Assembly: GCA_965219565.1 (NCBI GenBank)
Contig: OZ244780.1
Span: 1,346,146 to 1,410,145 of the forward strand
DNA: 64,000 bases
Reading direction: 5' to 3'
Source of the DNA: Dehalococcoidia bacterium
Lineage (GTDB): Bacteria > Chloroflexota > Dehalococcoidia > Lucifugimonadales > JAGWBF01
Part shown: positions 7,128-54,491 of the stretch, piece after piece
Layout of the letters: the number at the start of each line of letters is the position of its first letter
Position numbering within the stretch: the stretch's first letter is position 1
Translations under genes and position numbers: made by a program
Notes under the pieces: model-generated
Seen by the model: only the letters and a program-made list of their open reading frames with translations
The model's database searches: none
What the model was told of the DNA's origin: nothing

Positions 7128-8735
7128 TTAACCCATTGCTAGCCTGGATTGGCATCGTGATTCCCCTTTCTCAAACGACGTGAGGTTTTCAGTAGGGATG
7201 CCAAGGGTGATGCTGACGTTGTTGTTGTGGTCAATGAGGACCTGATCGACGAGCAACCGCAGGACATCCCGGCGCTTCTCCTGGGGCAGGTCGTCCAGAC
7301 CGTGGCCGAACCTCCCGGCCCATTCAACCAGGTTCTCCATGAGCAGGCGCTTCTCAGACGCCATCGACTCCCTGGCGCGGAGGTCGTTCAGCGTGGCGCG
7401 CGCGGCTTCCAGGCGCTCGGTGATGAACCGCCGCTGCTGGTCGAGCTGGTCCTCGGTGATCTTGCTCGACACGTACAGTCGGATGGCCCTCTCCTCCTCG
7501 ACCTGGACCTTTTGGAGGTCGCGCTCGGCTCCTGCGATCTGGTTGGCGACGCCAAAGTCATCGTGGGCGTCGAGGGACTCGATGCCCGCCACTATAAGCT
7601 CGGGGTTCTGGACCATCTCCTTGACCTGGTTCCACACCAGCTTCTCCAACTGTTCGGCCCTGATCATTGCGGGCTTCCGGCAATCCATGTCCTCTCTGAG
7701 CATCCCGTAGCAGTGGTAGTGCCTCTGAGGGGTGACCCTGGCCTGCTTGCGGACCTTGCCCTTCCGCCTGAAGTAGGTGTGGGTGGAGGAGCGGCAGGCG
7801 AACATTAACCCGCACTCGGCGCAACTGACGAGGTGCTGGAGCAGATAGAATATCTTGGTGTTGCGCTTGGACCGCACCGTCCGCTGCTTCTTGATGGCCT
7901 GAGCGCGGTCCCAGGTCTCCTCGTCCACCAGGGGCGGGAACGGCACCTTGATCCACCTATCTTCCGGCTGCGGGTAGATTCTCTCTCCGGCCTCCGTCAC
8001 GACCCAGCGGGCCTTGCCGTAGTGCCATGCGCCCTTGTAGACCTCCCTGCCGAGAATGGCGCTGACGTATGCCTTGTGCCACCGGGAGCCGGGATTTCTG
8101 AGAGGTGCGTCCTCGCTGGTCATCCGTTCGCAGATTGGCGTCCCGGCCAAACCCTCGTGAACGTACATGTGGAAGATGCGCCGAACGACCTCGGCCTCCG
8201 GCTCGCATATCTCCGGCTTGCCGTCGTCTCCGGTACGATACCCGTAGGGGGGCGCTCCGGCGGGCATCCGGCCCTGCTTGGCCGAGCCGCGCTTGCCCAT
8301 GGTGGACCTCTCCCGGAAGTTGTCCAGCTCGATCTTGCCGATGGCGGCCATGAGGCCGAAGGTCTTCATGTCGATAGCGTCCATGACGGCTTCCAGCTGT
8401 ATCTGATGAGCCTCGACCACTTCCATGAGGGCGGCTGCGGGGTACATGCCCCTGCTGAGGCGGTCGGACTTCCAGCAGACGATGGTGTCGAAGCGTTCCC
8501 GCCTGGCGTCGGCCAGCATCCTCTGGAACTCCGGGCGCTTCTTGGACCATCCCCTGCCCACCTCCTGGTATCGGGCGGTTATGGTCATGCCCTTCTGCTC
8601 GCAGTAGGCTTCCATCTCGCCTGTCTGCTCGGAGATGGAGGTCTTGTCGTCTTCGGCCTGGCTCTTGTCCGAAACGCGGGCGTAGATGGCCGCCCTCTTG
8701 CCGTTCACTCGTTCCCTTGCTCTGGTTCTCGCCAT
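7128..8735 (-). CDS. Large serine recombinase (integrase)
   Basis: Start at ATG 8735 after a GGAGG RBS. AAIYARVSDKSQ carries the catalytic Ser. Also has the resolvase domain, recombinase domain, Cys-rich zinc-ribbon region (CAECG...YHCYG) and a coiled-coil C-terminus. Confidence 0.9.
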   Translation of the reverse strand: MARTRARERVNGKRAAIYARVSDKSQAEDDKTSISEQTGEMEAYCEQKGMTITARYQEVGRGWSKKRPEFQRMLADARRERFDTIVCWKSDRLSRGMYPAAALMEVVEAHQIQLEAVMDAIDMKTFGLMAAIGKIELDNFRERSTMGKRGSAKQGRMPAGAPPYGYRTGDDGKPEICEPEAEVVRRIFHMYVHEGLAGTPICERMTSEDAPLRNPGSRWHKAYVSAILGREVYKGAWHYGKARWVVTEAGERIYPQPEDRWIKVPFPPLVDEETWDRAQAIKKQRTVRSKRNTKIFYLLQHLVSCAECGLMFACRSSTHTYFRRKGKVRKQARVTPQRHYHCYGMLREDMDCRKPAMIRAEQLEKLVWNQVKEMVQNPELIVAGIESLDAHDDFGVANQIAGAERDLQKVQVEEERAIRLYVSSKITEDQLDQQRRFITERLEAARATLNDLRARESMASEKRLLMENLVEWAGRFGHGLDDLPQEKRRDVLRLLVDQVLIDHNNNVSITLGIPTENLTSFEKGESRCQSRLAMG

Positions 8736-8962
8736 GATTCGCCTCCTTATGCTCACATTCCCTGAAACGAAAAAGACCCGCCTCCTGTTGGGAGCGGGTC
8801 TGCGAGTAGTACAATCTATTCGCATCACCTGATCTCAACAGGTGGCGCCACGGCCCGGGGTGTGTCTAGCATCGCCGGGCCAACTTTCTGTCCCCATGAT
8901 ACCCCTATTGGCGGGTCATGGTCAAAGGTCTTGTTGACAGCCGCCGCCGAGGCTGATGACGG

Positions 8963-31792: not shown

Positions 31793-32183
31793 ATGAGACT
31801 AGCTGCACAGGCGAAGGGCGGCTACTACCCCACTCCCGAGCGGGTGGTGGACCTGATCGCCGACCTTATTCACACCCCCTCCGGCTACTACTACCGGGAG
31901 CGGGAGTCCCTGCGCATCCTCGACCCCTGCTGCGGGGCCGGGGACGCGCTGAAGAGGCTGGTGGAGGGCCTCAGCCGGCCCAACGCCCTGGCCATGGAGA
32001 CCTTCGGCATCGAGCTGCACCAGGACCGGGCGGAGGAGGCGGAGCGGCGGCTCGACCACGTGCTGGCGGCGGACCTGTTCGCCACCTCGATAGCGAACGG
32101 GGCCTTCGGCCTGCTGTACCTGAACCCGCCCTACGACTACGACTCGGAGGACAAGCGGACGGAGCACGCCTTCCTGACGCATA
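31793..32183 (+). CDS. N6-adenine DNA methyltransferase, exon 1
   Basis: Motif I ILDPCCGAGD and motif IV LNPPYDY. The frame runs into intron GTGCG at 32184 and stops 7 codons later if unspliced. Confidence 0.75.
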
Positions 32184-32693
32184 GTGCGCCGCGTAACGCG
32201 GCATAGGATACCTAGCTCAACTAGGAGGAACTCGGAGGGAGTTCCTGGGCCAACCGACCCACCTGGCGGCGAAAGCCAAAGGGGACAACAGCATGTCGGT
32301 AAAGCGGCTACAGCCCCAAAGCGTTGTAAGGCTGGTTCCGCAAGGCCCGCGCGATACGGTGAAAGCTTGATTGCCTGAACCCCAGTTCTCAGTCGGTGTA
32401 TAAGGACACCCGCCGGTAAAACGCTTGTAACCCGGCGCCACCCATTGCACTGGTCGGCAGTGTGGACCAACGCACCTCCGATGGGTGAACGATGGCTAAC
32501 TAGGTCATTCAAGGGAACGAACGGGGCACCTACAGTCGCGCTAGAACGTCCTATGTCAACGGAACGCGGGATTGCCTACGGGGGGAGACCCCTATGGCAA
32601 CGGAGCCCTCGTAGTAGTCCGAGCCGGGGAAAGCCCGGCACATGGCGAAGGAGGGCAGGTGTCAACGACGGAATACACAGAGAGGTATGCAGA

Positions 32694-34466
32694 ATGCAGA
32701 ACGCCGAAACTGTACTGAACGTCATACGCAAACGCGGAGAACGAGGATTGCCGCTGGAGAACATCTATCGGCTGCTTTACAACCGGAACCTTTACCTGCG
32801 GGCCTACGGTCGCATCTACTCAAACCAGGGAGCTACGACCAAGGGCGTCACCGCAGAAACCATGGATGGTATGTCACTGGCGAAGATCGACCGCATCATC
32901 GAAGCCTTGCGCTACGAGCGGTTCCGATGGACGCCAGTACGACGGGTCAACATTCCCAAGCCTAACGGCACGACCCGCGCCTTGGGCATACCGACTGGGC
33001 CGGACAAGCTGCTGCAAGAGGTCATCCGGATGATTCTGGAAGCCTACTACGAGCCGCAGTTTTCGGACCGCTCCCACGGCTTTCGGCCCCACCGGGGATG
33101 CCACACCGCCTTGAGCGAAGTGGTCCACACCTGGACGGGAACCCGCTGGTTTGTCGAGGGCGATATCAAAGGGTGCTTTGACAACATCGACCACGATGTC
33201 CTGTTGTCGGTGCTTGGAGAGAAGCTTCACGACAACCGATTCCTACGTCTGCTCAAGTACCTACTGAAAGCAGGCTACATCGAGGATTGGAAATACGGCC
33301 GCACGCTGAGCGGGACCCCGCAAGGCGGCATCGTCAGCCCCATCCTCGCCAACATCTACCTAGACCGGTTGGACAAGTACGTTGAGACGGTGCTGATTCC
33401 AGCACACACCCGAGGCAAAGCCCGAAGGCGCAGCCCCTCCTACCGCGCGTCGGCCAGACGCGTGGCAGCGGCTCGGCAGACTGGGAACCACGCTCAGGCG
33501 GCGCAACTGTTCACACAGATGCAACAACTTCCGTCAGGCGACCCCCACGACCCCGGATACCGTCGGTTGCGCTACGTCCGCTACGCGGACGATTTCGTCT
33601 TGGGCTTCATCGGGCCAAAGGCCGAAGCCGAGCAGATACGGGAGGCCTTGGAGACATTCCTGCACGAAACACTCAAGCTGGAGTTATCCAGGGAAAAGAC
33701 TCTCATAACCCATGCCACCAGCCAGGCGGCCAAGTTCCTCGGCTATGAACTCGTGAACCAACAGGCCAATGACAAGCATGTCCGCCACGGACAACGCAAC
33801 GCCAACGGTCGCATCGGTCTACGGGTCCCCGCCAAAGTCATCGAACAACACTGCCAAGCCTACATGCGCCACGGCAAACCGGCACACCGCAGCGTCCTTA
33901 TACACGATGAGGATTACTCCATCGTGGACAGGTATCAAGCGGAGTTCCGGGGCGTCGTCCAGTATTACCTACTGGCCCAGAATGTCTCCCATTTCGAGAG
34001 ACTGCACGGAATCATGCGGGAATCGATTGTCAAGACCCTCATCGCCAAGCACAAGACCCCACGCCGGATACTGCTCCGACGCTACAAGAGCGTCGTACAG
34101 ACCGAAGAGGGCGAACGGGCTTGCCTTGAGGCCGTCAAACAACGGGGCGATGGGAAACGCCCACTGGTGGCACGGTTCGGTGGCATACCCCTGAAGCGGA
34201 ACCGGCAGGCAATTCTAATAGACCGACAGCCTGAACCGTACAGGTTTCACCGTAACGAGCTCGTAAAACGGCTTCTAGCGGACGAATGCGAGATGTGCGA
34301 CTCAACGATGGACGTAGAAGTCCATCACATCCGCGCACTTCGCGACCTGAATGTGAAAGGCCAACGGGAAAAGCCCAAGTGGGTACAAATCATGGCGGCG
34401 CGAAAACGCAAGACCCTCGTGGTCTGTCGTACGTGTCACATGGACATCCACCACGGGCGCAAGTAA
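32694..34466 (+). CDS. Group II intron reverse transcriptase/maturase with HNH endonuclease domain
   Basis: The N-terminus LNVIRKRGERGLPLENIYRLLYNRNLYLRAY is typical of intron-encoded proteins. RT motif YVRYADDFVLGF and a C-terminal CEMCDS...EVHHIRAL...CRTCHMDIHHG. Confidence 0.9.
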   Translation: MQNAETVLNVIRKRGERGLPLENIYRLLYNRNLYLRAYGRIYSNQGATTKGVTAETMDGMSLAKIDRIIEALRYERFRWTPVRRVNIPKPNGTTRALGIPTGPDKLLQEVIRMILEAYYEPQFSDRSHGFRPHRGCHTALSEVVHTWTGTRWFVEGDIKGCFDNIDHDVLLSVLGEKLHDNRFLRLLKYLLKAGYIEDWKYGRTLSGTPQGGIVSPILANIYLDRLDKYVETVLIPAHTRGKARRRSPSYRASARRVAAARQTGNHAQAAQLFTQMQQLPSGDPHDPGYRRLRYVRYADDFVLGFIGPKAEAEQIREALETFLHETLKLELSREKTLITHATSQAAKFLGYELVNQQANDKHVRHGQRNANGRIGLRVPAKVIEQHCQAYMRHGKPAHRSVLIHDEDYSIVDRYQAEFRGVVQYYLLAQNVSHFERLHGIMRESIVKTLIAKHKTPRRILLRRYKSVVQTEEGERACLEAVKQRGDGKRPLVARFGGIPLKRNRQAILIDRQPEPYRFHRNELVKRLLADECEMCDSTMDVEVHHIRALRDLNVKGQREKPKWVQIMAARKRKTLVVCRTCHMDIHHGRK

Positions 34467-34553
34467 TCCACGCAAGCACAGTAGGTAGTGTCCAATCCAC
34501 AACAACTGAATACGACTCCAATAACAGCCTCCTCCCCCGCGTGGTACACTTGA

Positions 34554-35006
34554 ATGACAGCCATTGCCGGGGTTTTGGGCCTATGCCCACTGGAGGTAAT
34601 GGGGCAAATGCTACACCGGGTGAAGGTGTATCCCGCCAAACGCCGCTTCCTAGCAACGCTCGGCCTAACCTTGGTTTCGGGCGTAGGCTTCGTACTGGCC
34701 GTCACTGTACTTGAGAGACCAGACGACACTTGGCGTGCCATGGTTACAGGAGTGATCGCGCTAATGGTCGCCCCCTTCCTCGCTGGCTGGCTATCACCCC
34801 ATCCCAGTTACGTAGCGTTCTTCCCCATCAGTCTGTTTGTCGGACTCTCAGTTGAGACGGCCATACACGGCCCTCTGACGATTGATTCTGACAACTTCTG
34901 GTTCATCGTCGCGCTCACCACAATCTATGGTGGCTTGGCGTCAGTAACGTTCTTGGGCGGGTGGCTGACTCATTACGGCCTCTCCCGTCTGGCAGAGCGC
35001 AGGTAA
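34554..35006 (+). CDS. Four-helix membrane protein encoded inside the intron (domain IV, downstream of the IEP)
   Basis: 150-aa ORF with four clear hydrophobic helices. Two short hairpins follow it before domain V. Confidence 0.45.
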   Translation: MTAIAGVLGLCPLEVMGQMLHRVKVYPAKRRFLATLGLTLVSGVGFVLAVTVLERPDDTWRAMVTGVIALMVAPFLAGWLSPHPSYVAFFPISLFVGLSVETAIHGPLTIDSDNFWFIVALTTIYGGLASVTFLGGWLTHYGLSRLAERR

Positions 35007-35097
35007 AGCGGGCCTACCACCCGTAGGCTCACACTGCCAATCACGTGGTGCCCAAGCACCACGCCTAGCTAACGACACTACCCACATCGACACTGGA

Positions 35098-35131
35098 GAG
35101 CCGGATGCGGTGAAAGCCGCACGTCCGGTTC
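35098..35131 (+). ncRNA. Group II intron domain V
   Basis: GAGCCGGATGCGGTGAAAGCCGCACGTCCGGTTC. The 34-nt helix has a GAAA tetraloop and the catalytic AGC triad position. Confidence 0.8.
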
Positions 35132-35194
35132 GGAGGGGGGCCGACGGAAAAGTGCTCCGGTAACACGGGGTAACTCGCCGGCGGCCTACCCTAC

Positions 35195-35841
35195 CCACGC
35201 GCTACCTGGCCGAGGACGGCCTGCTGGTCTTCATCGTGCCACGGCAGCGCCTCGCGGTCTCGGCCCGGTATCTCTCCACCCACTACGGGCGGATGCAGTG
35301 CTGGGCCTTTCCCGACCCGGAGGGGCAGGTTTTCGACCAGGTGGCGCTGTTCGGCTTCCGGAAGACCGATCCCGTTCCCGACGCCACAGCCGAGAGCAGG
35401 GTGCTGGAGTGGGCGGTGGGTGAGCCGGAGCCCCTGCGCTCCCACGCCTACACGGAGTTCACCCCATCGACGACGCCGGTCGGCGACATCCTCTTCACGA
35501 CCCGGACCGTCGATCCGGTCGCTGCGGCCGCCGAGGCGCGGCGGTCGGGGCTGTGGGCCAGCACGGAGATCACCGACACCCTGTGGCCCGCGAGCGACAA
35601 CCGGACCCGCCCGCTGATGCCCCTCAGACGGGGCCACATGGCGATGCTGGTGGCGGCGGGCTTCCTCAACAACCTGGTGCTCGAAGCCGAGGGCAGGCGC
35701 ATCCTGGTCAAGGGCCGCACCTCGAAGGAGATGGTGATGGTCGAGGACGCCCCGGAGAAGGAGGTCCACCGCGAGAAGCTCAACACGACCGTCGTCGCCC
35801 TGGACCTCGACGACGGGCAGATCGAGGACATCGCAGCGTAG
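35195..35841 (+). CDS. N6-adenine DNA methyltransferase, exon 2
   Basis: Continues ...AFLTH-T-TRYLAEDGLLVFIVPRQRL..., the expected post-NPPY region. The frame is consistent with the exon 1 phase (1 + 2 nt). Confidence 0.7.
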
Positions 35842-38739: not shown

Positions 38740-38831
38740 TGCCAGTCCGAGAGGCCCGAACGGTGTCCCGAACGGGACGCCGCAGACACGGCAACGCAGC
38801 AAGACAGCAACTCTCACAAAGGAGATCAGTC

Positions 38832-39038
38832 ATGGCAAGAGTGTTCGTATACGACGACCGCGAGTTCCCGGACCCCGACCCCGAGATGAGCGTCGACCAG
38901 GTGAAGAGCACGCTCAGCGACTTCTACGGCGAGATCGCCAACGCCTCGGTCAAGGAGACCAAGCGGGGCGACGACACCATCTACGAGTTCCAGCGGCGGG
39001 TGGGCACCAAGGGCGCCTTCACCCTCGCCCGGAGCTAG
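38832..39038 (+). CDS. Ubiquitin-like (beta-grasp-sized) protein, PRTRC protein C-like
   Basis: 68 aa with an AAAGGAG RBS. RVFVYDDREFPDPDPEMSVDQVKSTLSDFYGEI...YEFQRRVGTKG matches my memory of the PRTRC-C family, which ends in GTKG. Here 7 extra residues (AFTLARS) follow. Confidence 0.6.
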   Translation: MARVFVYDDREFPDPDPEMSVDQVKSTLSDFYGEIANASVKETKRGDDTIYEFQRRVGTKGAFTLARS

Positions 39039-39051
39039 AGGAGGGAGTCCG

Positions 39052-39279
39052 ATGGACAACCGGACCTTTGCGGGCCTGCTGGCGGCGACGCCTCCGGCGG
39101 GCCTCAGAATCATCGAGCTCACGGCGGAGCTCACACGGCCCGACGGCTCCTTCGACCTGGACGCCGCGGCCGCACGGCAGGCTGAGGTGGAGACGGCCTG
39201 CACCCAGGCCCAGGACTACGCCTCGGCCACGGGCCGACTGCTGGAGGCGATGCGATGGAAGCTGCTGCCCCGGCGCTGA
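39052..39279 (+). CDS. Hypothetical small protein within the Ubl cassette
   Basis: 75 aa. Its stop overlaps the next ATG (TGATG). Confidence 0.45.
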   Translation: MDNRTFAGLLAATPPAGLRIIELTAELTRPDGSFDLDAAAARQAEVETACTQAQDYASATGRLLEAMRWKLLPRR

Positions 39280-40094
39280 TGAGCGGCCTGGCCGAACGGC
39301 TCCTGCGGCGTCCGCCGTCGCTGCGGGAGCTGGTCACGCTGGTCGGGTACGCCGACGACTACGCATGGTTCGCGGGGCTGGTGCGCCGCCTCTTCCCGAA
39401 TGAGGCGGAGGCGGCGCTCTCGGCCCCCGACGTGCGCACGAGGGTGGAGCGGTTCGCACACCTCTTTGGCGAACGACACTTCCCCCTCTACGCGCCGATG
39501 ATCGAGTTCTGGACGGAGGTCGAGGACGAACCGCCCTGGTCCTGGCTCAGGAGGGGCATCCCCTTCGACCTGATGGGCTTCGGCTACGACGGCCTCCACG
39601 AGATGTGGAACGGCTACCGGGACGGCATCTCGGCAATGGCCCTCCTGGTCAGGCCACCGGACGTCTACTACGACGGCCCCGACGGGCTGCGGGTGGCCTG
39701 GCTGGAGTCGGCCGCCGAGCGCATACCGAAAGAGACCTTGGAGAGAGTTCCCGAAGGGGGCATACCCCTGGAGGACCTCACGGAGGCGCTGAAAGGAACG
39801 AGGTTCGAGGGGGCGGCGCAAGCCTGCTCCTGGGTCCTCGCCGAGACCGGCAACTTCTTCCTCGACCACAACTACGAGGACGGGAGCTACGACGGCTTCG
39901 CCGACCCCTGGGACGACGACATCATCGCCGAGGGCACGGAGGAGTGGCGAAAGGCCAGCGCCCTCATGGACTCGGTGTGCAAACTGGCCGACTGGCTGGA
40001 GGACGACCTCCCCGGCCGCTTCGCGGAGATGCTGGACTTCGTCCTGCCCCGGCTCCCCGAACAAGAACAGGAGGCAACCGACCATGACGACTGA
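39279..40094 (+). CDS. Hypothetical protein within the Ubl cassette (positional equivalent of PRTRC protein F)
   Basis: 271 aa counted from the ATG coupled to the previous stop. Acidic, Trp-rich, with no motif recognised. Confidence 0.5.
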   Translation: MSGLAERLLRRPPSLRELVTLVGYADDYAWFAGLVRRLFPNEAEAALSAPDVRTRVERFAHLFGERHFPLYAPMIEFWTEVEDEPPWSWLRRGIPFDLMGFGYDGLHEMWNGYRDGISAMALLVRPPDVYYDGPDGLRVAWLESAAERIPKETLERVPEGGIPLEDLTEALKGTRFEGAAQACSWVLAETGNFFLDHNYEDGSYDGFADPWDDDIIAEGTEEWRKASALMDSVCKLADWLEDDLPGRFAEMLDFVLPRLPEQEQEATDHDD

Positions 40095-40794
40095 CACAGA
40101 AAAGACCGAGTGGTCCCTTCCGGGCCCGGATGAAATACCCAGGGACAAGCTGAACCTCCAGATGGAAGTCTACGAGGAGACCATCCTGCTGCGGGGCTTC
40201 GAGGGCGAGTCCGTCTGGGTCAAGACCGTATCGGCGGACGAGATCGCCAACGTCTTCACCCAGCACCTGGGTTTCTCCTCGGGGCTGCTTCCCCAGGACG
40301 CCCTCTGGTGGAACCAGGGCGAGACCGGCCAGATGGTGGCCCTCTGGCGGCCGCCGCAGGTCTGGCCGGTGGCCCTGCAACGGGAGGCGTTCAAGTCACC
40401 CGCACGGCTCCGGCTTCCCATGCCGGGGCTGGTCTTCGTCTGCTCGCCGGGCCGTGCGCCCTGGGCCTACGCGGCCCTGGAGCGACCGACGGACCCCGAT
40501 GAGCAGCTCTACCGAATGCCCGCCTTCAACGTCTTCGGCGACGGGCGGGTCTGCCCCGGAAGCCACCGGTTCCCCGAGGAGGTGGCACAGATACCGGAGT
40601 CCTTCTTCCGGTCCTTCTTCTCCCTTACCGGAGATTCAAAGAACCGCTCGAAGAAGCACCCCGACGACCTGCACTCGCTATGGGAGGAGTTGGATGGAAA
40701 GACTGAGTACCCGGTTGAGGACCTTGTTCCCCAGTGCACGGTGGCCCAGGTCATTGCGGCCTCCCAGGGGAGACGGGGCTATGGCTACCGCTAG
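40084..40794 (+). CDS. E2/UBC-like protein, PRTRC protein B-like
   Basis: MPAFNVFGDGRVCPG resembles the HPN...C active-site region of E2 enzymes. Size and position fit PRTRC-B. Confidence 0.55.
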   Translation: MTTDTEKTEWSLPGPDEIPRDKLNLQMEVYEETILLRGFEGESVWVKTVSADEIANVFTQHLGFSSGLLPQDALWWNQGETGQMVALWRPPQVWPVALQREAFKSPARLRLPMPGLVFVCSPGRAPWAYAALERPTDPDEQLYRMPAFNVFGDGRVCPGSHRFPEEVAQIPESFFRSFFSLTGDSKNRSKKHPDDLHSLWEELDGKTEYPVEDLVPQCTVAQVIAASQGRRGYGYR

Positions 40795-41470
40795 AGACGT
40801 ACGAGGCCCGGTGGGCTACCTCGTCAATCACCCAGGCGGGCTGACCGGCGCGCACGGCGTCGGCTACGACTACGTTTTCGGATTGGGCGGCGTCTACGTC
40901 CAGTCCGAGAGCGCACACCTGACGGCGCGGGTGCTCGTCTCCCCCTGCACGGTGCGGGGCCTCGCGCCCGTAACCGAGAAGGCGGAGCTAACGAACGGCC
41001 CCATCCCGGCCCGGCTCTTCGAAATCGGGCTACGCTGGTTCAAAGACGAACCCGACACCGAGCGGTTCTTCGCCGTCAGGTGGGACGGGCGAGCCTACCG
41101 GCTGGTGGTTCCCGAACAGGAAGGGACGGCTTCGTCCCTCAAATACATCCCGCCCGCAGGGGTGGTCGCCGAGTTCCACTCCCACGGAAGCTCCCGCGCC
41201 TTCTTCTCGAAGACCGACGACGGCGACGAGCTGGGCTTCCGCGTCTACGGCGTCGTTGGACGCCTGGACAGCCCCGAACCGGAGCTGAGTCTTCGGGTCG
41301 GCGTCTACGGCCACTTCGCAACGGTGGACTGGTCCCAGATGTTCGACGGGCCTATACCGGGCGTCCGGCTGGTGGACGAAGAGCCGGATTCAACCAATAC
41401 AAGAGACAAGGAGGTGATTGAATGCCTTACCACCTGGACAACGCGTTCCTGCTCGACAATCCCTGGATAA
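40781..41470 (+). CDS. JAB/MPN metallopeptidase, PRTRC protein A-like
   Basis: Intact JAMM motif AEFHSHGSSRAFFSKTDDGDE. The start overlaps the previous gene and the tail overlaps the E1 start by 49 nt. Confidence 0.7.
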   Translation: MATARDVRGPVGYLVNHPGGLTGAHGVGYDYVFGLGGVYVQSESAHLTARVLVSPCTVRGLAPVTEKAELTNGPIPARLFEIGLRWFKDEPDTERFFAVRWDGRAYRLVVPEQEGTASSLKYIPPAGVVAEFHSHGSSRAFFSKTDDGDELGFRVYGVVGRLDSPEPELSLRVGVYGHFATVDWSQMFDGPIPGVRLVDEEPDSTNTRDKEVIECLTTWTTRSCSTIPG

Positions 41471-42237
41471 CGGTGGTCGGCTGCGGTGGGACCGGAGGCT
41501 TCGTCGCCGAGGGTCTGTGCAGACTCTTCCAGGGGCGGCAGGCCACCATCGTCCTGGTCGACCACGACCGGGTGGAGCCCCACAACCTGCTGCGCCAGAA
41601 TTTCTACCCGGAGGATGTCGGGAGATTCAAGAGCCAGGCCCTCGCCGACCGGCTGGCCAAAGCCTACCGGCGTCCCGTGGGCTACTCGGTCTACCCGTTC
41701 CGGGAATACGACGCGCAACCCCACGGGCACGGCTACCCCGGCATCCCCGGCTACGGCGGCAACCTCATCATCGGCTGCGCCGACAACGCCGCAGCACGCA
41801 GGGCGATGGCGGAGTGCCTGCCGGTCGACACGCGCCGGTGGCTCATCGACGCGGGCAACGACACCAACTGGGGACAGGTGCTGGTAGGCAACGTCGCCGA
41901 GCCGGTGACCCTGGAGGAACCGCCCTTCACCGGGGAGACCTGCCACCTGGCGCCCGCGCCCACGCTCCAGCGCCCCGACCTGCTGACGGCGGTGTCGACC
42001 AGGCCGCCGGACGTGGACTGCGCGACGGCCCTCGACCTCACCGACCAGGACCCGACCATCAACCAGATGATGGCGTCCCTGGCGCTACAGGTGGTCCGCC
42101 GCATGGTGGCGGGCACCTGCCCCTTCATGGGCCTCTACCTGGACATGGAGCAGGGAACGGTCACCCCCAGCTACGTCACCCCGGAGGCGGTGGTGCGGGT
42201 GGTCGGGCCCGGCTCCGAGTGGGAGATAGAGGCTTAG
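41422..42237 (+). CDS. ThiF/MoeB/E1-like adenylyltransferase
   Basis: AGGAGG RBS. ITVVGCGGTGGFVAEGL Rossmann loop, VDHDRVEPHNLLRQ and IIGCADNAAARRA. Confidence 0.8.
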   Translation: MPYHLDNAFLLDNPWITVVGCGGTGGFVAEGLCRLFQGRQATIVLVDHDRVEPHNLLRQNFYPEDVGRFKSQALADRLAKAYRRPVGYSVYPFREYDAQPHGHGYPGIPGYGGNLIIGCADNAAARRAMAECLPVDTRRWLIDAGNDTNWGQVLVGNVAEPVTLEEPPFTGETCHLAPAPTLQRPDLLTAVSTRPPDVDCATALDLTDQDPTINQMMASLALQVVRRMVAGTCPFMGLYLDMEQGTVTPSYVTPEAVVRVVGPGSEWEIEA

Positions 42238-44152: not shown

Positions 44153-47100
44153 TCAGAGTTCTAGCTTCGACATCGGCGACCAATCCGAAGTTCCGGCCTC
44201 GTTGACGGCCCGGACGCGGAAGTAGTACACCGTCCAGTACGTCGGCAGTCCCGTGACTGTGGCTCCGGACCCGCTAATGGAGACGCCCAGGCCTGCGCCG
44301 TCGTTCGGCAGCGTCGTCCACTCGCCATTCCACCACAGCCCTACCTCGTAGCCAGTGGCGGTCTCAACGTCGTTCCAGTCCAGGGAGGCATTGCCTGCGC
44401 CGTCCAGGCTCCCGGTGGGCGCGTCGGGCGAGTCCGGGGCGACTGCCGGTGGCAGAGCGGCTCTGGTCACGGTGACGGTATAGGTCGTGGCGGTGTTGCC
44501 GTCCTCGGCGGTGACCTCGACGGTGATGACGTTTCTGCCCACATCGAGTGGGATTACCCCGTCGGCGTCGGCCACGCCGTCCAGCTTGACCGCGTAGGCC
44601 GCTCCGTCGTCGCTGACCGTGGGCGTTACCGTGGTTTCCGTCACGTCGTTGTCGACGTTGGCGGCATACTCGGTGGTGGCCGGGTCGAAGGCGCCGATGT
44701 CCACGCCGCTCAGCGTCAGCCTGCTCAGGGCGGCGTCAGTGGAGAGCGGCGGCGCGGCGCGAGTGACGGAGACGGTGTAGGTCTTGGTGCCGTTCCCGTC
44801 CTCGGCGGTGACCTCGACGGTGATGACGTTGCCGCCCACGCCGAGGGGGATTACCCCGTCCTCGTCAGCCACGCCGTCGAGCTTGATTACGTAGCTTGCC
44901 CCGCCGTCGTTGGTCGTCGGGGTCACCGTCGTTTCGTCCATATCGCTGGCGACGTTGGCGGTGTACCTGGTCGTGTCTGATGCGAACGCCAGGGTGACAT
45001 CGCTCAGGGTCAGGCCGCTCAGCGTCGCGTCTGTGGAGGCTGGCTCCGGCTGTTGTTGGTCTGGGGCGTTGACCGTGAAGCCGGCGGTGGCCGACGCCAG
45101 CTTCACGTTGCCGGGGGACGATATGCTGACCTCGACGGTGTAGTCGCCGGGCGCGCAGGACGTGGAGATGGTGCCTGTGCGGACCTCCGGGTCCTCGTCC
45201 ACCTTGTACATGTAGCGGTCGTTGCCCATGCCGCCGCCTACGCAGCCGTCGGCGTTCCTCACGTCGGCCCGGAAGATGTAGTCGGTGTCGGAGGTGTCCG
45301 AGTCGGATTCCAGGTTGGCGAAAGACATGGTGACGGTGACCTCGACGCCTTCGTCCACCGGCCCGGACGGAGAGAGAGCAATCGCCACGGCAGGGCCCGA
45401 GACCGTCAGCGCGGCGCGGGTGACAGTCACCTTATAGGTCTTGACCGCGCTGCCGTCCTCGGCGGTCACTTCTACTGTGATGACGTTGGTGCCCACCGCG
45501 AGAGGGATTACCCCGTCCGCGTCAGCCACGCCGTCGAGCTTGATCGCGTAGGTGGCCCCGCCGTCGTTAGTCGTCGGACTAACCGTCGTCTGCCTCACAT
45601 CGCTGGCGACGCTGGCGGTGTACCCGGTAGTGGCCTGGTCGAACGCGCCGAAGTCGATGCCGCTCAGCGCCAGGTTGCGCAGCGTGGCGTCGGCGGAGAG
45701 CGACGGCGCGGCGCGGGTTACGGTTACGGTGTAGGTCCGCGTGGTGTTCCCGTCCTCGGCGGTGACTTTGACGGCGATGGCGTTGCTCCCCACGGCGAGA
45801 GAGACGGTCCCGTCTTCGTCTGCCGCGCCGTCGAGCTTGATTACGTAGCTTGCCCCGCCGTCGTTGGTCGTCGGGGTAACGGTGGTCTGCGTCACGTCGT
45901 TGGCGACGCTGGCGGTGTACCCGGTAGTGGCTGATGCGAACGTGCCGATGTTGACGCCGCTCAGGGTGAGGCCGTTCAGCGTGGCGTCTGAGGAGGCCGG
46001 CTCCGGCGGTTGTTGGTCTGGGGCGTTGACCGTGAAGCCGGCGGTGGCCGACGCCAGCTCCACGTTGTCGGGAGACGAGATGCTCGCCCGGACGGTGTAG
46101 GCGCCCGCCGGGCAGTCTGCGGAGATGGTCCCCGTGCGGACTTCGGGGTCCTCATCCACCTGGTACATGTAGCGGTCTACGCCCAGGCCGTAGCCCCCCG
46201 CACGGTCCTCGCATTGGTCGGCCCCAACCACGTCGGCGCGGAAGATGTAATCGGTGTCGGAAGTGTTGGAATCAGACTCCAGGTTGGAGAAAGTCATGGT
46301 CACGTCGATTGGCGCGCCAACGGGCGCGGTGGGGGGCGACAGCGCAATCACAGCCGCAGGGCCGGACTCGGCCCGCTCCTCCTCTTCCCCACGCTGCCCC
46401 GGCGCCAAGTTTGCGCTCAGCGGATTGGCCTGGCCAATCTCGAAACCGTCGATCCTTTCCCTTCCGTTCTCATCCCGGCCACCGTCCACGAAAGCCGCCG
46501 AATCCACCGACACGGTGAACACTCGGCTGAACGTGCCGGACCGGGACAAGGTCACCCCCTCGCTGGCCAGGCTGCCCGCCGCTATCGTTACCGTGTGCTG
46601 CGACAGCACCCCGCCGTTGGATACCGACAGGGTGATGGTCATGTCCGCCGGCGCGCCTTGGGCCACCCTGACCGCGATTTCGTAGGTGCTCCGGTCCTGC
46701 TTCAGCACCGGCGTCAGCGTGAAAGGCGTACCCGTGTTGCCTATGAACCATACCGTGTTCAGACTGGAAAGGCCCTCGAACAATCCGTCCGGCAGATCCC
46801 TCAGTTTGTTGTCGAACAGAGCCAGCACCCGCAGAGCGCCCAGGCCCTCGAACACATCGCCCGGCAGTGCGTTCAGTTTATTCCCGTAGAGATACAGCGA
46901 TTCCAGACTGGACAATCCCGCGAAAGCCCCGGCTGGCAGCGTGCGCAGGTTGTTGTTTTCCAAGCTCAAGTCTTTCAGCTTGACCAGGCCCGCGAAAGCC
47001 CCGGCTGGCAGCGTGCGCAGGTTGTTGTTTTCCAGACTCAAGTCTTCCAACTTGCCCAATCCGTTGAAGGCGTCCTCCGGCAGCGTCGCCAGAGCGTTGT

Positions 47101-50100
47101 CGTGCAGGCGCAGCTCTTCGAGTTTGCCTAGGCGCTCAAATCCCGGCAGCGTCGTCAGCGCGTTGTCGTGCAGCAGCAGGGCTTCCAGTTCGACCAGGTC
47201 GCCGAGCACCCCGTCCGGCAGCGCGCTCAGGGCTTTGCTCTCATCGGCGTTCTTGTTGTGGTGTAGGTCCAGGCTCTTCAGCTTGGACAGGCCGTCAAAC
47301 ACGCCCTCGGGCAGCGACAGCAGGTGGTTGTTATCCAGAATCAGCCGCTCCAGGCCGGCCGCGTCGGCAAAAGTATCCGCCGGCAGCGCCGTAAACTCGT
47401 TCTCCCCCAAGTGCAGCAGTTTCAGGGCCGGCAGGCGGGTGAACATATCCGTCGGCAGCGCGGTCAGCGAGTTGTGTTCCAGGTGCAGCTTGTTCAGGCT
47501 CGCTAAGCCGTTGAACACGTCGGCGGGCAGCGCGGTCAGGGAGTTGCGTTCCAGGTGCAGCTCTTGGAGGTTCGCCAGGCCCTGGAAATCCCCGGATTTC
47601 AGCCCGGTAATCCCTTTGTTGATCAGCAGCAGGCTGCCGGTGATACCAGCAAGGTCCTCAGCCGTAACCAACTCGCAGTCGCTGACGTTGGGCAGCAGGG
47701 CCAGAATCCCGTCGCGCACCTGCGGCGTGCGCCCGCAGATGCCCGCCAAGTCGGTTACGGTAACGGTGACGTCCAAGGCGCCGGTATTGGTTCCATCGAA
47801 CGCCTGCACCGTTACGCTGTACACGTTGTCAGCATCGGCGTCCGCCGGGGCCTCGTAGTCGGGGGCAGCGGCGAACACCAGTTCCCCGGCGCTGCCGATG
47901 GAGAAGTCGCCGCCGTCGTCGCCGGACACCGACCAGGTTATGGTTGCGTTGTCTTCCCCGCCCGTTGCCGCGTATGCAGCCACCGGCGCAGCGCCGTTCT
48001 CGGCGTAGTCCGCCGCGACGGGACCGGACATGGCAAGCGGTGTTCCGGAGGTCAGCGTCAGGCTGTCCCCGACGCCAATCCGTATGCCATCGTAGCCCTC
48101 GTAATCATCCTCGTCGAACTCAGCTGACTCCACGCTGACGACGACCTGAGCGTGCCCGTTGCCGGCGGGGGTGAGGGTAATCGCATCGCTGGCCGTCTTG
48201 CCGCCCTCAACCTTGATAGCCGCGCCGGACAGGTCGCCGCCCTCGACCGACAGGCCGACGTCCATGTCGAAGGGCGACCCCTCGGCGACCTTGACCGCCA
48301 CCGCGCCGTCTCCCTGCTGTTCCAACTCCGCGGTAAGCGTGAAAGGCGCTCCGGGATTACCGCTCAGGGTCAGTCGCTCCAGGTTGGAGAGGCCCTCGAA
48401 AAGACCTTCGGGAAGCTCACTCAGATTGTTCTCGTCCAAGCGCAGCAATTGCAGGTTGGAGAGGCCGTCGAACACGCCGGCGGGCTGATCGCTCAGATTG
48501 TTGTCATACAAGTACAGCCGTTGCAGGCTGGTGAGGCCGTCGAATACGCCGTTCGGCAGTGATGCCAGCTGGTTGGAGCCCAAGCCCAGCCGTCGCAGGC
48601 TGGTGAGGCCGTCGAACACGTCCTCGGGCAGGGAAGTCAGATCGTTGTTCCACATGTGCAGCCCTTGCAGGCTGGTGAGGCCGTCGAACACGTCCTCGGG
48701 CAGGGAAGTCAGGTCGTTGTTGTCCAGGTGCAGATCTTTCAGGCTGGTGAGGCCGCTGAAGTCTCCGTCCTGCAATGCGGTTATCCCGGCATCAGACAGC
48801 AATAGGTCGCCTGTAATGCCGGCCAGGTCCGAGCTGGTCACCGCCGCGCAGTCGCTGACGTTGGGCAGCAGGGCCAGAATCCCGTCGCGCACCTGCGGCG
48901 TGCGGTCGCAGATGCCGGAGTTACCGGAGACGGACACGACCACGGTGGTTTCGGCCGTCCCGTCAATGCCGTCGTCGGCCGTGACGGTCAGCTCGTACTC
49001 ACCCGGGGCGACCGACGCACCAATGCCGCGCGTGTAACTGATCACTCCGCTGGTCGAGTCAATCCCGAACCGCGAAGGCCAGTCCCCCGCCTTCGCGTAC
49101 GTGATCGAATCGTTATCCGCGTCGGCCGCGACGACCGTGATGAGATTCGGCACTTCACTCGAATCGCTCTCCATCTCGACCGCGTAAAGCGCCGCGAACT
49201 GCGGCGGCGTGCCGGGAAGATCATAGGCGACGTTGAAGAGTCCCTGCCTGACCCAGATTATGCTGCCGTCGGACCACATGCCGCTTGTAATCATTGTGAG
49301 GAGGTCGTATGGGGATGGAGGGGGAGGAGCTCGTACAATGTCGAAATCGCGGCTCGGCACCCGCGCTTTGGTCTGGAGGTCGAAGGCGTACACTATGCGG
49401 CGTTTCGCTCCTTCGACCCACATCGTCTTTCCGTTGGACCAAAGTCCGGCTGGTGAGCCGACCGAGTACGGTAGGAATGGGGGTTTTCCCCTCGTCCCGG
49501 GAACCGAGAACTCCTCGCTCCGATCTCTCATTCCCGTGGCCATGTTGTACGCGTATACGCGCAAATGATGCCCGGTTACCCACATCGTTTCGCCGTCGGA
49601 CCAGATGCCCCCAGAGGGGTGATCGCGACCGGCTGAGATGTGGTCGTAGTGCGTGAGCCTAATCGTCTTGTCGCTTAGAAGCTTCCAGCTCGATCCGGTC
49701 CGTTGGAAGGCATATAAATAGTGCCTGTTTCCATGACCGCTATCATGTTTTTCGACTGTCAGCCATAGGATTCCATTGCCGTACCAGAGTTCCGGGTTCG
49801 CAAAAGACCCGTATTCGCATATCTTGAAAGTCGAGGGCACTCCATTGCAGGGGCCGATGTTGAAGCCCGCTCCCCTGTCCACCTCGCCCGTCTCCCGGTC
49901 GTAGATCGATACGACCACCCTGGCCAACCTGGCGAGCTCCTCCTCCACCCTTATTGACGCAATCCAGAACCTGTCGGCGCTTCCGTTCGCCGACGTGAAA
50001 CCAGTGGCAAGCGCTTCATTCGTATAGGGCGTTATGAAAGTATGCTCGCGGGTCACCGGGTCTTGCGCCCACGTCTCCGGCGCTGGCGCTGCCGGACGTT

Positions 50101-50638
50101 CAGGAACAACGATAGTGATCAGATACCTGATGATTGTGACGCCATCCGGCGCCGTGACCGTAACCGTCACATCGTTCGAGCCGGTTTGCACGTCGAAGTC
50201 CACCGGACTGGCGCATCCCTTTGAAGAATGGAGCGATTGGTCGAAGGTGATACCAGGAAGGCTGTCCTCACGGTCGATGGCGAGGCTCGCTTGGGGCTGC
50301 GTAGGCCAGGCGCAGATGCTGCTTGACGTGAGATACGAGTCAAGCTCGACTGTCGCCTCATTGTCCTTGTCGAACGCAATGTTCCCGGAAGCTTCTTCGC
50401 CGGGGCCGGGATTGATGATGCTGAAGCCGTCGCCGCCGATGTGGACCTTGTGCAGCGTGGCGTCGTTGGAGGCCGTAGGCGTGGACGTGGGACTGGCGGA
50501 GTTGGTCGGAGCGGGCGTCTGGGCGAGTGCGACGCCGCTCGGAGAGACGGTAGTGAGCGCCAGCGCGATGACCGCCAGCAGAGCCAGCGCGGCGACGGGC
50601 CGGAGAATCGGACGCAGGTTTGGCAATTGGAATGTCAT
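44153..50638 (-). CDS. Giant secreted surface protein with LRR blocks, cadherin-like domains, W-rich propeller-like repeats and a C-terminal FN3
   Basis: 2161 aa with a signal peptide. WSDG.TMWV-type repeats, two LRR blocks (LxxLxLxxNxLxxLPxxxFxGL), at least 6 DATLxxLxLSG cadherin-like beta-sandwich modules and a terminal FN3-like domain. Confidence 0.85.
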   Translation of the reverse strand: MTFQLPNLRPILRPVAALALLAVIALALTTVSPSGVALAQTPAPTNSASPTSTPTASNDATLHKVHIGGDGFSIINPGPGEEASGNIAFDKDNEATVELDSYLTSSSICAWPTQPQASLAIDREDSLPGITFDQSLHSSKGCASPVDFDVQTGSNDVTVTVTAPDGVTIIRYLITIVVPERPAAPAPETWAQDPVTREHTFITPYTNEALATGFTSANGSADRFWIASIRVEEELARLARVVVSIYDRETGEVDRGAGFNIGPCNGVPSTFKICEYGSFANPELWYGNGILWLTVEKHDSGHGNRHYLYAFQRTGSSWKLLSDKTIRLTHYDHISAGRDHPSGGIWSDGETMWVTGHHLRVYAYNMATGMRDRSEEFSVPGTRGKPPFLPYSVGSPAGLWSNGKTMWVEGAKRRIVYAFDLQTKARVPSRDFDIVRAPPPPSPYDLLTMITSGMWSDGSIIWVRQGLFNVAYDLPGTPPQFAALYAVEMESDSSEVPNLITVVAADADNDSITYAKAGDWPSRFGIDSTSGVISYTRGIGASVAPGEYELTVTADDGIDGTAETTVVVSVSGNSGICDRTPQVRDGILALLPNVSDCAAVTSSDLAGITGDLLLSDAGITALQDGDFSGLTSLKDLHLDNNDLTSLPEDVFDGLTSLQGLHMWNNDLTSLPEDVFDGLTSLRRLGLGSNQLASLPNGVFDGLTSLQRLYLYDNNLSDQPAGVFDGLSNLQLLRLDENNLSELPEGLFEGLSNLERLTLSGNPGAPFTLTAELEQQGDGAVAVKVAEGSPFDMDVGLSVEGGDLSGAAIKVEGGKTASDAITLTPAGNGHAQVVVSVESAEFDEDDYEGYDGIRIGVGDSLTLTSGTPLAMSGPVAADYAENGAAPVAAYAATGGEDNATITWSVSGDDGGDFSIGSAGELVFAAAPDYEAPADADADNVYSVTVQAFDGTNTGALDVTVTVTDLAGICGRTPQVRDGILALLPNVSDCELVTAEDLAGITGSLLLINKGITGLKSGDFQGLANLQELHLERNSLTALPADVFNGLASLNKLHLEHNSLTALPTDMFTRLPALKLLHLGENEFTALPADTFADAAGLERLILDNNHLLSLPEGVFDGLSKLKSLDLHHNKNADESKALSALPDGVLGDLVELEALLLHDNALTTLPGFERLGKLEELRLHDNALATLPEDAFNGLGKLEDLSLENNNLRTLPAGAFAGLVKLKDLSLENNNLRTLPAGAFAGLSSLESLYLYGNKLNALPGDVFEGLGALRVLALFDNKLRDLPDGLFEGLSSLNTVWFIGNTGTPFTLTPVLKQDRSTYEIAVRVAQGAPADMTITLSVSNGGVLSQHTVTIAAGSLASEGVTLSRSGTFSRVFTVSVDSAAFVDGGRDENGRERIDGFEIGQANPLSANLAPGQRGEEEERAESGPAAVIALSPPTAPVGAPIDVTMTFSNLESDSNTSDTDYIFRADVVGADQCEDRAGGYGLGVDRYMYQVDEDPEVRTGTISADCPAGAYTVRASISSPDNVELASATAGFTVNAPDQQPPEPASSDATLNGLTLSGVNIGTFASATTGYTASVANDVTQTTVTPTTNDGGASYVIKLDGAADEDGTVSLAVGSNAIAVKVTAEDGNTTRTYTVTVTRAAPSLSADATLRNLALSGIDFGAFDQATTGYTASVASDVRQTTVSPTTNDGGATYAIKLDGVADADGVIPLAVGTNVITVEVTAEDGSAVKTYKVTVTRAALTVSGPAVAIALSPSGPVDEGVEVTVTMSFANLESDSDTSDTDYIFRADVRNADGCVGGGMGNDRYMYKVDEDPEVRTGTISTSCAPGDYTVEVSISSPGNVKLASATAGFTVNAPDQQQPEPASTDATLSGLTLSDVTLAFASDTTRYTANVASDMDETTVTPTTNDGGASYVIKLDGVADEDGVIPLGVGGNVITVEVTAEDGNGTKTYTVSVTRAAPPLSTDAALSRLTLSGVDIGAFDPATTEYAANVDNDVTETTVTPTVSDDGAAYAVKLDGVADADGVIPLDVGRNVITVEVTAEDGNTATTYTVTVTRAALPPAVAPDSPDAPTGSLDGAGNASLDWNDVETATGYEVGLWWNGEWTTLPNDGAGLGVSISGSGATVTGLPTYWTVYYFRVRAVNEAGTSDWSPMSKLEL

Positions 50639-52254: not shown

Positions 52255-53124
52255 ATGACATATTCTGCTAAGAGTTCTCTGGCTCCGGTGTATCACGAGA
52301 GCGGTCCGTTTGCTGGCGTGACCGGTCGACGGCGAAAGCAACTGATGACGCTCCATCGGGCGTTCCACGGGCCGTTCGACTCGGCGCAAGCCGCATCGGT
52401 GCTCGACATCGATGTCGATCGTACACGCCGCCTGCTTGCAGCGCTAGCGGGTAGTGGCTGGCTTGCCCGTGTGCGAAGGGGCTGGTACATAGGTGTGCCC
52501 ATAGATGCATCCGCGCCGGGGGAGTGGCGGGAAGACCCCTGGGTGGTTGCGGCAACGCTCTTCTCTCCAGGCTACATCGGCGGGTGGAGCGCTGTTGAGC
52601 ACTGGGGACTGACCGACCAGATCTTCAACGTTATCTACGTTGTTGTGGGACGTAAGGTAGCGCCAACCCGACAGACCTTACAGGGGACTGACTTCCTGAT
52701 ACGAACAGTGCCCGAGCGGGCGCTGTTCGGGACGCGCCGCGTCTGGCGTCAGAGCGTGGCGGTGAATGTGGCGGACCCGCATCGCACGGTGATTGACATT
52801 CTCGATGTCCCGGCCTCCGCAGGCGGTGTCCTGCACGCGTTCGAAGTCCTGCGGGCCTACTTCGAAAGCGAGCACGCCGACCAGGCAAAACTCCTGGAGT
52901 ACGGCGACCGGCTCGATAGGGGCACAATGTTCAAGCGGCTAGGATATCTGGTGGAGAAAGCGGGTATCGCTGACGACGAGTTTGTGGAGGCGTGTCGCAT
53001 CCGAATCACCAAGGGCGTGAGCCGCCTCGATCCCAGTGGATCACCAAAGGGGCGTATCGTAGCTAGGTGGAACCTTCGCGTTAACACCTGGCGACTTGCC
53101 CCCGACAACGGGGATGGGCCGTGA
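52255..53124 (+). CDS. abiEi: AbiEi-family type IV antitoxin / transcriptional regulator
   Basis: N-terminal wHTH (FDSAQAASVLDIDVDRTRRLLAALAGSGWLARVRRGWY) plus the C-terminal AbiEi_4-like region. The stop overlaps the toxin start. Confidence 0.75.
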   Translation: MTYSAKSSLAPVYHESGPFAGVTGRRRKQLMTLHRAFHGPFDSAQAASVLDIDVDRTRRLLAALAGSGWLARVRRGWYIGVPIDASAPGEWREDPWVVAATLFSPGYIGGWSAVEHWGLTDQIFNVIYVVVGRKVAPTRQTLQGTDFLIRTVPERALFGTRRVWRQSVAVNVADPHRTVIDILDVPASAGGVLHAFEVLRAYFESEHADQAKLLEYGDRLDRGTMFKRLGYLVEKAGIADDEFVEACRIRITKGVSRLDPSGSPKGRIVARWNLRVNTWRLAPDNGDGP

Positions 53125-54491
53125 TTACCCGCGCCGACATAAACGACCGCGTTCGCCTCTGGGGACTTCGTGAGGACGTAGTTGAGAAAGACTATGTTCT
53201 CGGCTGGGTCCTCTGGGGCATAGGCACGGATCAACAGCTGGATCGTTCTTGGGTGTTCAAAGGGGGAACATGCCTGAAGAAATGCTACATCGAGACTTAC
53301 CGATTCTCGGAGGACCTTGACTTCACGGTGCTCGAAGATGGGCCTATTGAGCAGGCTGAGGTGCTTGAGGCAATCTCCCGTGTTCTGGATCGGGTAAACC
53401 AGGAGTCCGGTATTGATTTTGCGCTGATGCCTCCCGCTTATCAGAGTCGGCCCCTGGGTCCTTCGGCCGAAGTGCGTGTCTACTATCGGGGGCCCCGAAA
53501 CACTCCCGGCCCGGCAAGGATCAAGTTCGACCTCACAATGGACGAGAAGGTGGTGTGTCCGCCAGTCCTGAGGTCGGTCAGCCATGACTACACCGATGCG
53601 TTGCCCCCGCCAGGGCAGGTCCGCTGCTACAGCTTTGAGGAAGTCTTCGCAGAGAAGCTGCGGGCCATGGGGGAACGTTCCCGCCCGCGGGACCTATACG
53701 ACATAGTCAACCTCTTCCGCCGGCCTGACTTCCGCCCCTATGCCGGTCTCGTCCTCGAGGTTCTCAAGCAGAAGTGCGAGTCCAAAGGCGTATCCGTGCC
53801 CTCAGCCGAGGCTATTAGCGAGTCGCCGATGTTCGAGGAACTGAAGAGCGAGTGGGAGAACATGCTCGCGCACCAGTTGCGAGCCCTGCCGGCGTTTGAC
53901 CACTTCTGGGCCGAGGTGCCGCGCATTTTCGCCTGGCTCAATGGTGCCGAACTAGCTGACGAGCTCGAACTCTGGCCTCTTGCCGAAGGCGAAGAATTTT
54001 GGGAACCACCTCATACATTCTGGACGTCGGGCCAGGGGAGTCGTCTGGAGCCTGTACGGTTCGCTGCGGTCAACCGCCTGCTCGTAAACCTCGGCTACCG
54101 TCAACAACACCGACTGATTGAGCCGTATTCTCTGAGGCAGACGGGGGAAGGTAACATCCTCCTGCACGCCATCCGTGCAGATGGTGGAGGGAATAGGGCA
54201 TACCGGGTTGATCGCATTGAGTCCGCAGAGGTAACGACTCACCCCTTTACACCACGGTTCCTGGTCGAATTCCCTGCATCGGGAACGGTTCCTGCGCCAC
54301 CCTCTCCGAGGCGACACGTCTCGCGGAGCGCAGGGGTGAGGCGATCGAACCGCCCGGAGTATGTCGTCCTCTGCGTTCTTTGCGAGAAGCGATTCCGACG
54401 CACCCGCCGGAGCACGCAACTGCGGCCACATAAAGATCCCAGCGGCTGGGACTGCCCAGGAAGGTCAGGTTACATGGAGAGTGTCGGATAG
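53121..54491 (+). CDS. abiEii: AbiEii/AbiGii nucleotidyltransferase toxin with WYL-like and Cys/His C-terminal extension
   Basis: GTG overlaps the TGA of abiEi. EKDYVLGWVL...FKGGTCLKKCY...RFSEDLDF is the DUF1814 core. The C-terminal LIEPYSLRQTGEGNILLHAIRADGGGNRAYRVDRIESAEV is WYL-like and is followed by CVLCEKRF...HKDPSGWDC. Confidence 0.75.
   Translation: MITRADINDRVRLWGLREDVVEKDYVLGWVLWGIGTDQQLDRSWVFKGGTCLKKCYIETYRFSEDLDFTVLEDGPIEQAEVLEAISRVLDRVNQESGIDFALMPPAYQSRPLGPSAEVRVYYRGPRNTPGPARIKFDLTMDEKVVCPPVLRSVSHDYTDALPPPGQVRCYSFEEVFAEKLRAMGERSRPRDLYDIVNLFRRPDFRPYAGLVLEVLKQKCESKGVSVPSAEAISESPMFEELKSEWENMLAHQLRALPAFDHFWAEVPRIFAWLNGAELADELELWPLAEGEEFWEPPHTFWTSGQGSRLEPVRFAAVNRLLVNLGYRQQHRLIEPYSLRQTGEGNILLHAIRADGGGNRAYRVDRIESAEVTTHPFTPRFLVEFPASGTVPAPPSPRRHVSRSAGVRRSNRPEYVVLCVLCEKRFRRTRRSTQLRPHKDPSGWDCPGRSGYMESVG

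Follow-up and report, generated by a model that had tools for sequence, protein, structure and literature searches.

A conserved membrane-protein gene carried within domain IV of a mobile group II intron in a Dehalococcoidia bacterium

Bacterial group II introns are regarded as selfish elements whose only gene is that for their own mobility protein. In the 64,000-nt stretch of Dehalococcoidia DNA analyzed here (the window), such an intron holds an additional open reading frame (ORF; 34554-35006) between the stop codon of its intron-encoded protein (IEP; 34466) and domain V (DV; 35096), which raises the question of what a second ORF is doing at this place and whether it travels with the intron. 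The original prediction put the spacer at about 630 nt, close to the 629 nt that were measured, and offered two readings of it, a cargo gene hitch-hiking in a retroelement or a nested insertion. From the coding sequence, the RNA structure around it, and the related introns, we consider it very likely that the locus as a whole is explained by a passenger-gene cassette, complete in itself, that sits in domain IVb of a mobile Ll.LtrB-type group II intron. The features of the locus are listed in Table 1.

Table 1. Coordinates of the intron, its cargo gene, and the interrupted host gene within the window
Feature	Position	Strand	Evidence
Exon 1, ICE DUF6094 N6-methyltransferase	31793..32183	+	Pfam DUF6094, E 5e-16
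Group II intron, Ll.LtrB/ML-like, 3,011 nt	32184..35194	+	GTGCG 5' end; Rfam DV/DVI; end-to-end homologue alignment; intron-less alleles
Delta and EBS1 loop	32458..32464	+	Read by eye; fits two sister sites better than the window site
DI/DII linker, second cargo site, unoccupied here	32558..32560	+	Domain assignment by eye; 226-760 nt in 10 relatives
Domain IV basal stem, 5' strand	32656..32663	+	Covaries with 3' strand in 35/35 introns read
IEP, 590 aa: RT (YADD), maturase, HNH	32694..34466	+	Pfam; LtrA 5G2X, E 7e-119
Cargo-closing stem, 5' strand	34484..34492	+	Pair probability ~1.0; kept in nearly all loaded introns
Extended -10 promoter-like motif, TGnTACACT	34542..34550	+	Conserved in homologues
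Shine-Dalgarno-like GGAGGT	34592..34597	+	Sequence; conserved
Cargo gene, 132-aa four-helix membrane protein	34608..35006	+	Homologues, dN/dS, AlphaFold2, neutral simulation
Two hairpins 3' of cargo, no U-tract	35012..35063	+	MFE fold
Cargo-closing stem, 3' strand	35074..35082	+	Fold; conservation
Domain IV basal stem, 3' strand	35089..35095	+	Covariation
Domains V and VI	35096..35194	+	Rfam RF00029, 67.5 bits
Exon 2, methyltransferase	35195..35841	+	Pfam DUF6094; spliced frame

The intron shows the hallmarks of a mobile group II intron (GUGYG 5' end, DV/DVI, and AY 3' end), and its IEP, encoded within domain IV, has an intact RT-X-En arrangement. Domain boundaries were set by eye and by covariation. 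LtrA (5G2X) was the best full-length PDB match of the IEP, and by this match, the closest among solved IEPs, the intron is assigned to class ML/IIA, Ll.LtrB-like. It lies in an ICE, whose genes in the window include a serine recombinase (7128-8828) and relaxase-like, coupling, VirB4-like, VirB6-like, primase, and Rad52-like genes. When the intron was removed, the two exons joined into an open frame of 345 aa for a DUF6094 protein, and contigs of the sample also hold intron-less alleles of this methyltransferase. At the window site (32178-32195), EBS1 is mismatched at exon position -1 and delta at +1, whereas L008 and L006, the sister sites, show good EBS/IBS pairing; the window copy therefore looks like a near-cognate insertion, and because of the same mismatches its splicing, and with it that of the methyltransferase, may be poor and inefficient. 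Elsewhere, the ICE contains genes for a prokaryotic ubiquitin, an E2 family D protein, and ThiF with a JAB-like ORF (38763-42237), and a 2,161-aa LRR/cadherin-like surface protein with internal repeats is encoded at 44153-50638. An AbiEii nucleotidyltransferase gene, with a weak WYL match, lies at 53121-54491.

The ORF of the spacer had been described as a 150-aa protein with four hydrophobic helices. Its frame is open over that length, but the product is very probably 132 aa from ATG 34608, since this ATG is the start of most of the 19 homologues, is directly preceded by an in-frame TAG in three of them (L002, L007, and L013), and lies 10 nt 3' of GGAGGT, while ATG 34554 is at or before the inferred transcription start. 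The longer form was dropped on these grounds. The AlphaFold2 model of the 132-aa form (pLDDT 74) has helices at 9-34, 38-62, 66-87, and 94-131, which agree with the hydropathy peaks and bear out the four helices. Searches for a known relative gave no Pfam family (best E value, 0.056), no fold match by Foldseek in the PDB (best E value, 0.65), and no clear match in the Atlas structure search (best 0.87 or less; TM 0.60 or less), and the ESM Atlas search of the protein pointed to no function. An extended -10 motif of the type found here occurs in 18 of 20 cargo leaders compared with 2.3 expected, although the leaders are not independent; a sigma-70 scan found no -35/-10 pair. From this motif, we infer that the cargo is expressed. 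Both small hairpins noted 3' of the gene (35012-35028 and 35044-35063) were present in the MFE fold, and a terminator scan made no call on the + strand. In addition, a Logan contig from a run that is possibly the source sample covers 34440-35103 with zero differences, and the cargo is encoded in two Dehalococcoidia GTDB records, one of them with a near-identical intron.

The 19 close homologues of the cargo share 63-74% identity; a scan of JGI metagenomes found no relative. The median pairwise dN/dS of the cargo was 0.40 (range, 0.25 to 0.71), compared with 0.21 to 0.35 for the IEP. Thirteen distinct copies contain no stops, and indels are in-frame within the ORF and frameshifting in its flanks. 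In a neutral simulation, a frame kept open in four lineages was beyond expectation (p ~0.002). Both tests that had been named as able to overturn the ORF, that of conservation and selection and the comparison of spacers in related introns described below, came out in its favor, and the cargo is a real conserved gene under purifying selection. The highest dN/dS values (0.37 to 0.71) fell on the window lineage, where selection may thus be relaxed.

Two nested stems place this gene inside domain IV. The basal stem of the domain occurs in two types, and its strands, 1.8 to 2.7 kb apart, agree in type in all 35 readable introns; the type in the window is found in 19 of 19 loaded introns and the other in 13 of 16 empty ones. 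The inner 9-bp stem forms with a pair probability of about 1 in the window intron and in almost every loaded relative. It recurs in a lineage with an IEP C terminus that is only about 50% identical, where wobble pairs are seen and the extensions differ. Its variants combine G-U wobbles with compensatory extension. The cargo is looped out within domain IV by this 9-bp stem of its own.

The same 9-bp inverted repeat, which resembles IS6-type ends, surrounds unrelated cargos, and the cargos have a cassette-like appearance, as would be expected if the insert were an independent mini-element (a MITE, a mobile insertion cassette, or an integron-like cassette) and the repeat its DNA recombination end. 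However, the spacer contains no transposase, no target duplication, and no second domain V. Genome-wide, the repeat shows no enrichment (11 occurrences versus 7.5 expected), with only one other pair of it outside introns. Wobble pairs and variable extension suit an RNA stem, the breakpoints of cargo exchange described below vary and often lie inside the IEP, and copies outside introns carry ribozyme remnants rather than the paired repeat. Because target duplication, transposase, and genome-wide enrichment are all lacking, we interpret the repeat as a stem in the RNA rather than as the ends of an IS. An IS, a MITE, and a mobile insertion cassette were rejected accordingly, a twintron was rejected on the single DV in the window, and the mini-element explanation is largely refuted and highly improbable. 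Of the two original readings, that of a nested insertion is thus not supported.

The loaded intron has moved recently into diverged targets. A second loaded copy in the same genome (L008; G000 C1, ~600.7-603.7 kb) is identical across all 3,011 nt and interrupts a paralogous methyltransferase of a related ICE, several related ICE segments being present in this genome; a third, in another genome, differs at 1 nt in 3,011. All three interrupt paralogous methyltransferases at one shared position with precise junctions, and the exons of these genes share only 75-86% identity, with differences that reach the junctions themselves. Since the introns match while the exons differ up to the junctions, the pattern fits retrohoming rather than co-conversion. 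The same cargo is found at the same position in introns L001-L003, L007, L013-L015, and L105, and it is carried by introns that have three different EBS1 sequences and lie in at least four target genes. Being conserved, under purifying selection, inside domain IV, and copied with the intron, the ORF is the hitch-hiking cargo gene that the original prediction had proposed. In run X1 of the same sample, contig joints at 32661-35091 and 32726-35089 suggest ORF-less derivatives of the intron family.

Alignment with related introns, proposed at the outset as a check, separated the 46 distinct 3' ends into 23 sister introns with at most 27 nt between IEP stop and DV and 23 with 374-911 nt. As half of the relatives are without a domain IV cargo, the intron does not need one. 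The 23 long spacers encode about ten unrelated ORFs, nearly all of which, judged by eye, have a lipobox, signal anchor, or transmembrane helices. These cargo types are scattered over the IEP tree, thereby indicating cargo swapping. Three intron pairs (L003/L048, L047/L073, and L053/L054) differ in cargo but share 95-100% identity along the greater part of the intron, and L007 and L013 have cargos that are 98.5% identical with divergent IEPs (dS 0.41). The exchange breakpoints fall at different places in the stem and the final ~200 nt of the IEP, as would be better explained by homologous recombination or template switching than by a site-specific system. Since the intron sequences are mosaic throughout, swapping may be a by-product of general recombination. 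Three lipoprotein cargos have a common promoter and signal peptide with different mature domains. The same sharing, with a terminator-like hairpin in addition, is seen among the lipoprotein cargos in the spacers of L047, L049, L050, L062, and L073, whose mature domains also differ, and it suggests that domains are shuffled inside the slot. In the L088 spacer, a lipoprotein cargo is antisense and lacks the inner stem and sense promoter motif that are usual elsewhere. At L095 (5778-7219), an IS-type transposase splits a lipoprotein cargo just past its leader, and no DV was found nearby.

A gene can be real and still be carried to no effect, if it was captured by accident in a tolerant loop, is slowly decaying there, and owes its signal of selection to chromosomal phases. 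The excess of cargo over IEP dN/dS, up to 0.71 on the window branch, would fit such a neutral hitch-hiker, as would the IS that breaks the cargo of L053, the loss of cargo from three introns with the loaded-type basal stem, and a cargo-less relative about ten times deeper in the sample. Against this, the intron-borne copies L001, L004, L015, and L014 themselves show dN/dS of 0.29 to 0.44, promoter and RBS are conserved alongside the stop-free frames of the 13 copies, and near-uniform membrane and lipoprotein cargos (by eye) are unexpected from random capture. We therefore regard neutral carriage as improbable and retain the reading of a selected passenger gene.

A second site in these introns also receives candidate genes. 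In 10 of the 32 full introns (L051, L052, L055, L056, L060, L061, L063, L066, L080, and the second intron of L003), 226-760 nt are inserted in the 3-nt linker that follows the domain I closing helix. Nine of these inserts contain an antisense ORF of 64-201 aa with a membrane-type appearance, bounded by complementary ends, and four of the ORFs form one family (44-83% identity). Most of the introns concerned have nothing in their domain IV slot: domain IV alone was occupied in 16 full introns, the second site alone in 9, both in 1, and neither in 6 (Fisher p 0.002 for exclusivity, a value overstated because kin are not independent). A small protein kept through many retrohoming events could be thought to serve the intron itself, for example as a membrane tether of the RNP or a regulator, and the cargos are indeed nearly all envelope proteins, with one at either site in 26 of the 32. 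However, the cargos are mutually unrelated and many are outward-facing lipoproteins, six introns are without any, and the family of the window cargo lives freely in chromosomes; we find a role for the intron hardly credible.

Of 101 genomes searched, 20, this one among them, contain free-standing members of the distant family of the cargo (25-45% identity, often with a C-terminal extension). Those distant homologues that were scanned had no DV next to them. Their neighbors are transposases, SRAP, recombinases, and adhesin domains, which show only a location in variable islands. This free-standing family, common in such islands of these genomes, is the likely source from which the gene would have been captured once. 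Among the copies of the close family, five are intron remnants truncated at the 5' end that retain DV/DVI (L010, L012, L017, L101, and L102), and three are without a ribozyme (L005, L011, and L100). One of the latter, L005, equals L010 minus a clean deletion of ~217 nt that takes out DV/DVI. Truncated and ribozyme-free copies group with the full introns L004 and L105 (support, 100/98). In AU tests, a clade restricted to full introns was rejected (p 0.002), and a tree with the ribozyme-free copies outside all ribozyme-bearing ones was not (p 0.11). The derivation of ribozyme-free copies from intron-borne ones is thus favored, though not proven, and because the opposite polarity was not rejected, it is likely but unproven that truncated copies leave the cargo gene in chromosomes. 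At L012 (4769-4846), an inverted duplicate of its own DV/DVI precedes the 5'-truncated copy.

Among known systems, the intron resembles Ll.LtrB/LtrA of Lactococcus lactis (class ML, IIA) in its RT-maturase-HNH IEP, its target in a gene of a conjugative element, and exon recognition by delta/EBS1. It differs in the promoter-bearing cassette with a closing stem of its own and in the second cargo site of its relatives; we know of no second natural gene in domain IV of Ll.LtrB. In passenger transposons, mobile insertion cassettes, and LINE-type transduction, unrelated genes likewise travel with a mobile element and may be left behind by it. Unlike in these, the carrier here is a ribozyme retroelement, and RNA structure instead of DNA ends delimits its internal cargo. 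In engineered targetrons, domain IVb is reported to be the best location for cargo, with efficiency falling above ~1,000 nt (PMC3898094). The natural cargos occupy the same place as those of engineered cargo targetrons (Ll.LtrB and EcI5; RAM markers), at 374-911 nt, but they have arisen naturally, with the IEP kept in cis, the cargo in sense, an evolved looping stem, and exchange among lineages. The part of the review by Zimmerly and Semper (2015; PMC4424553) considered here describes variants with extra sequence or a non-RT ORF in a group II intron (LAGLIDADG-encoding, twintrons, 3'-extended, and ORF-less); the ORFs of these variants, unlike the present cargo, are mobility proteins or nested introns, and no passenger genes are listed within that part, while the word "cargo" is absent from the review. 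No report of a natural cargo-carrying group II intron was found in a literature search that covered mostly papers outside subscription.

In the mechanism that we propose, the 9-bp closing stem would keep the cargo from disturbing ribozyme folding, and the cargo would be reverse-transcribed together with the intron in retrohoming. In the DNA copy, the extended -10 promoter of the cargo would drive its expression independently of splicing. Co-resident introns would exchange cargos by recombination or RT template switching in conserved flanks (the HNH-coding end and the stem on one side, the stem and DV on the other), with variable breakpoints. The protein would most likely reside in the host membrane, where a modest benefit to the host or the ICE would offset the cost of the intron. 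Our best guess at this benefit, a tentative one that may well be wrong, is that the protein would exclude or protect against incoming elements or phage. It is possible, at somewhat less than an even chance, that the lineage forms an RNA-based gene-cassette system with two insulated and largely exclusive sites (domain IVb in sense and the DI/DII linker in antisense), which carries and exchanges cell-envelope genes and seeds them into chromosomes, the cargo keeping the introns tolerated in ICE genes.

Loaded introns may thus act as natural gene-delivery vehicles. Their naturally evolved designs (closing stem, size range, and second site) are on offer for the cargo limit of targetrons, and near-identical pairs of loaded and empty introns make the cost and benefit of a cargo directly testable. 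If this lineage does routinely carry, swap, and deposit selected host-type genes, retrohoming would be a route of horizontal gene transfer.
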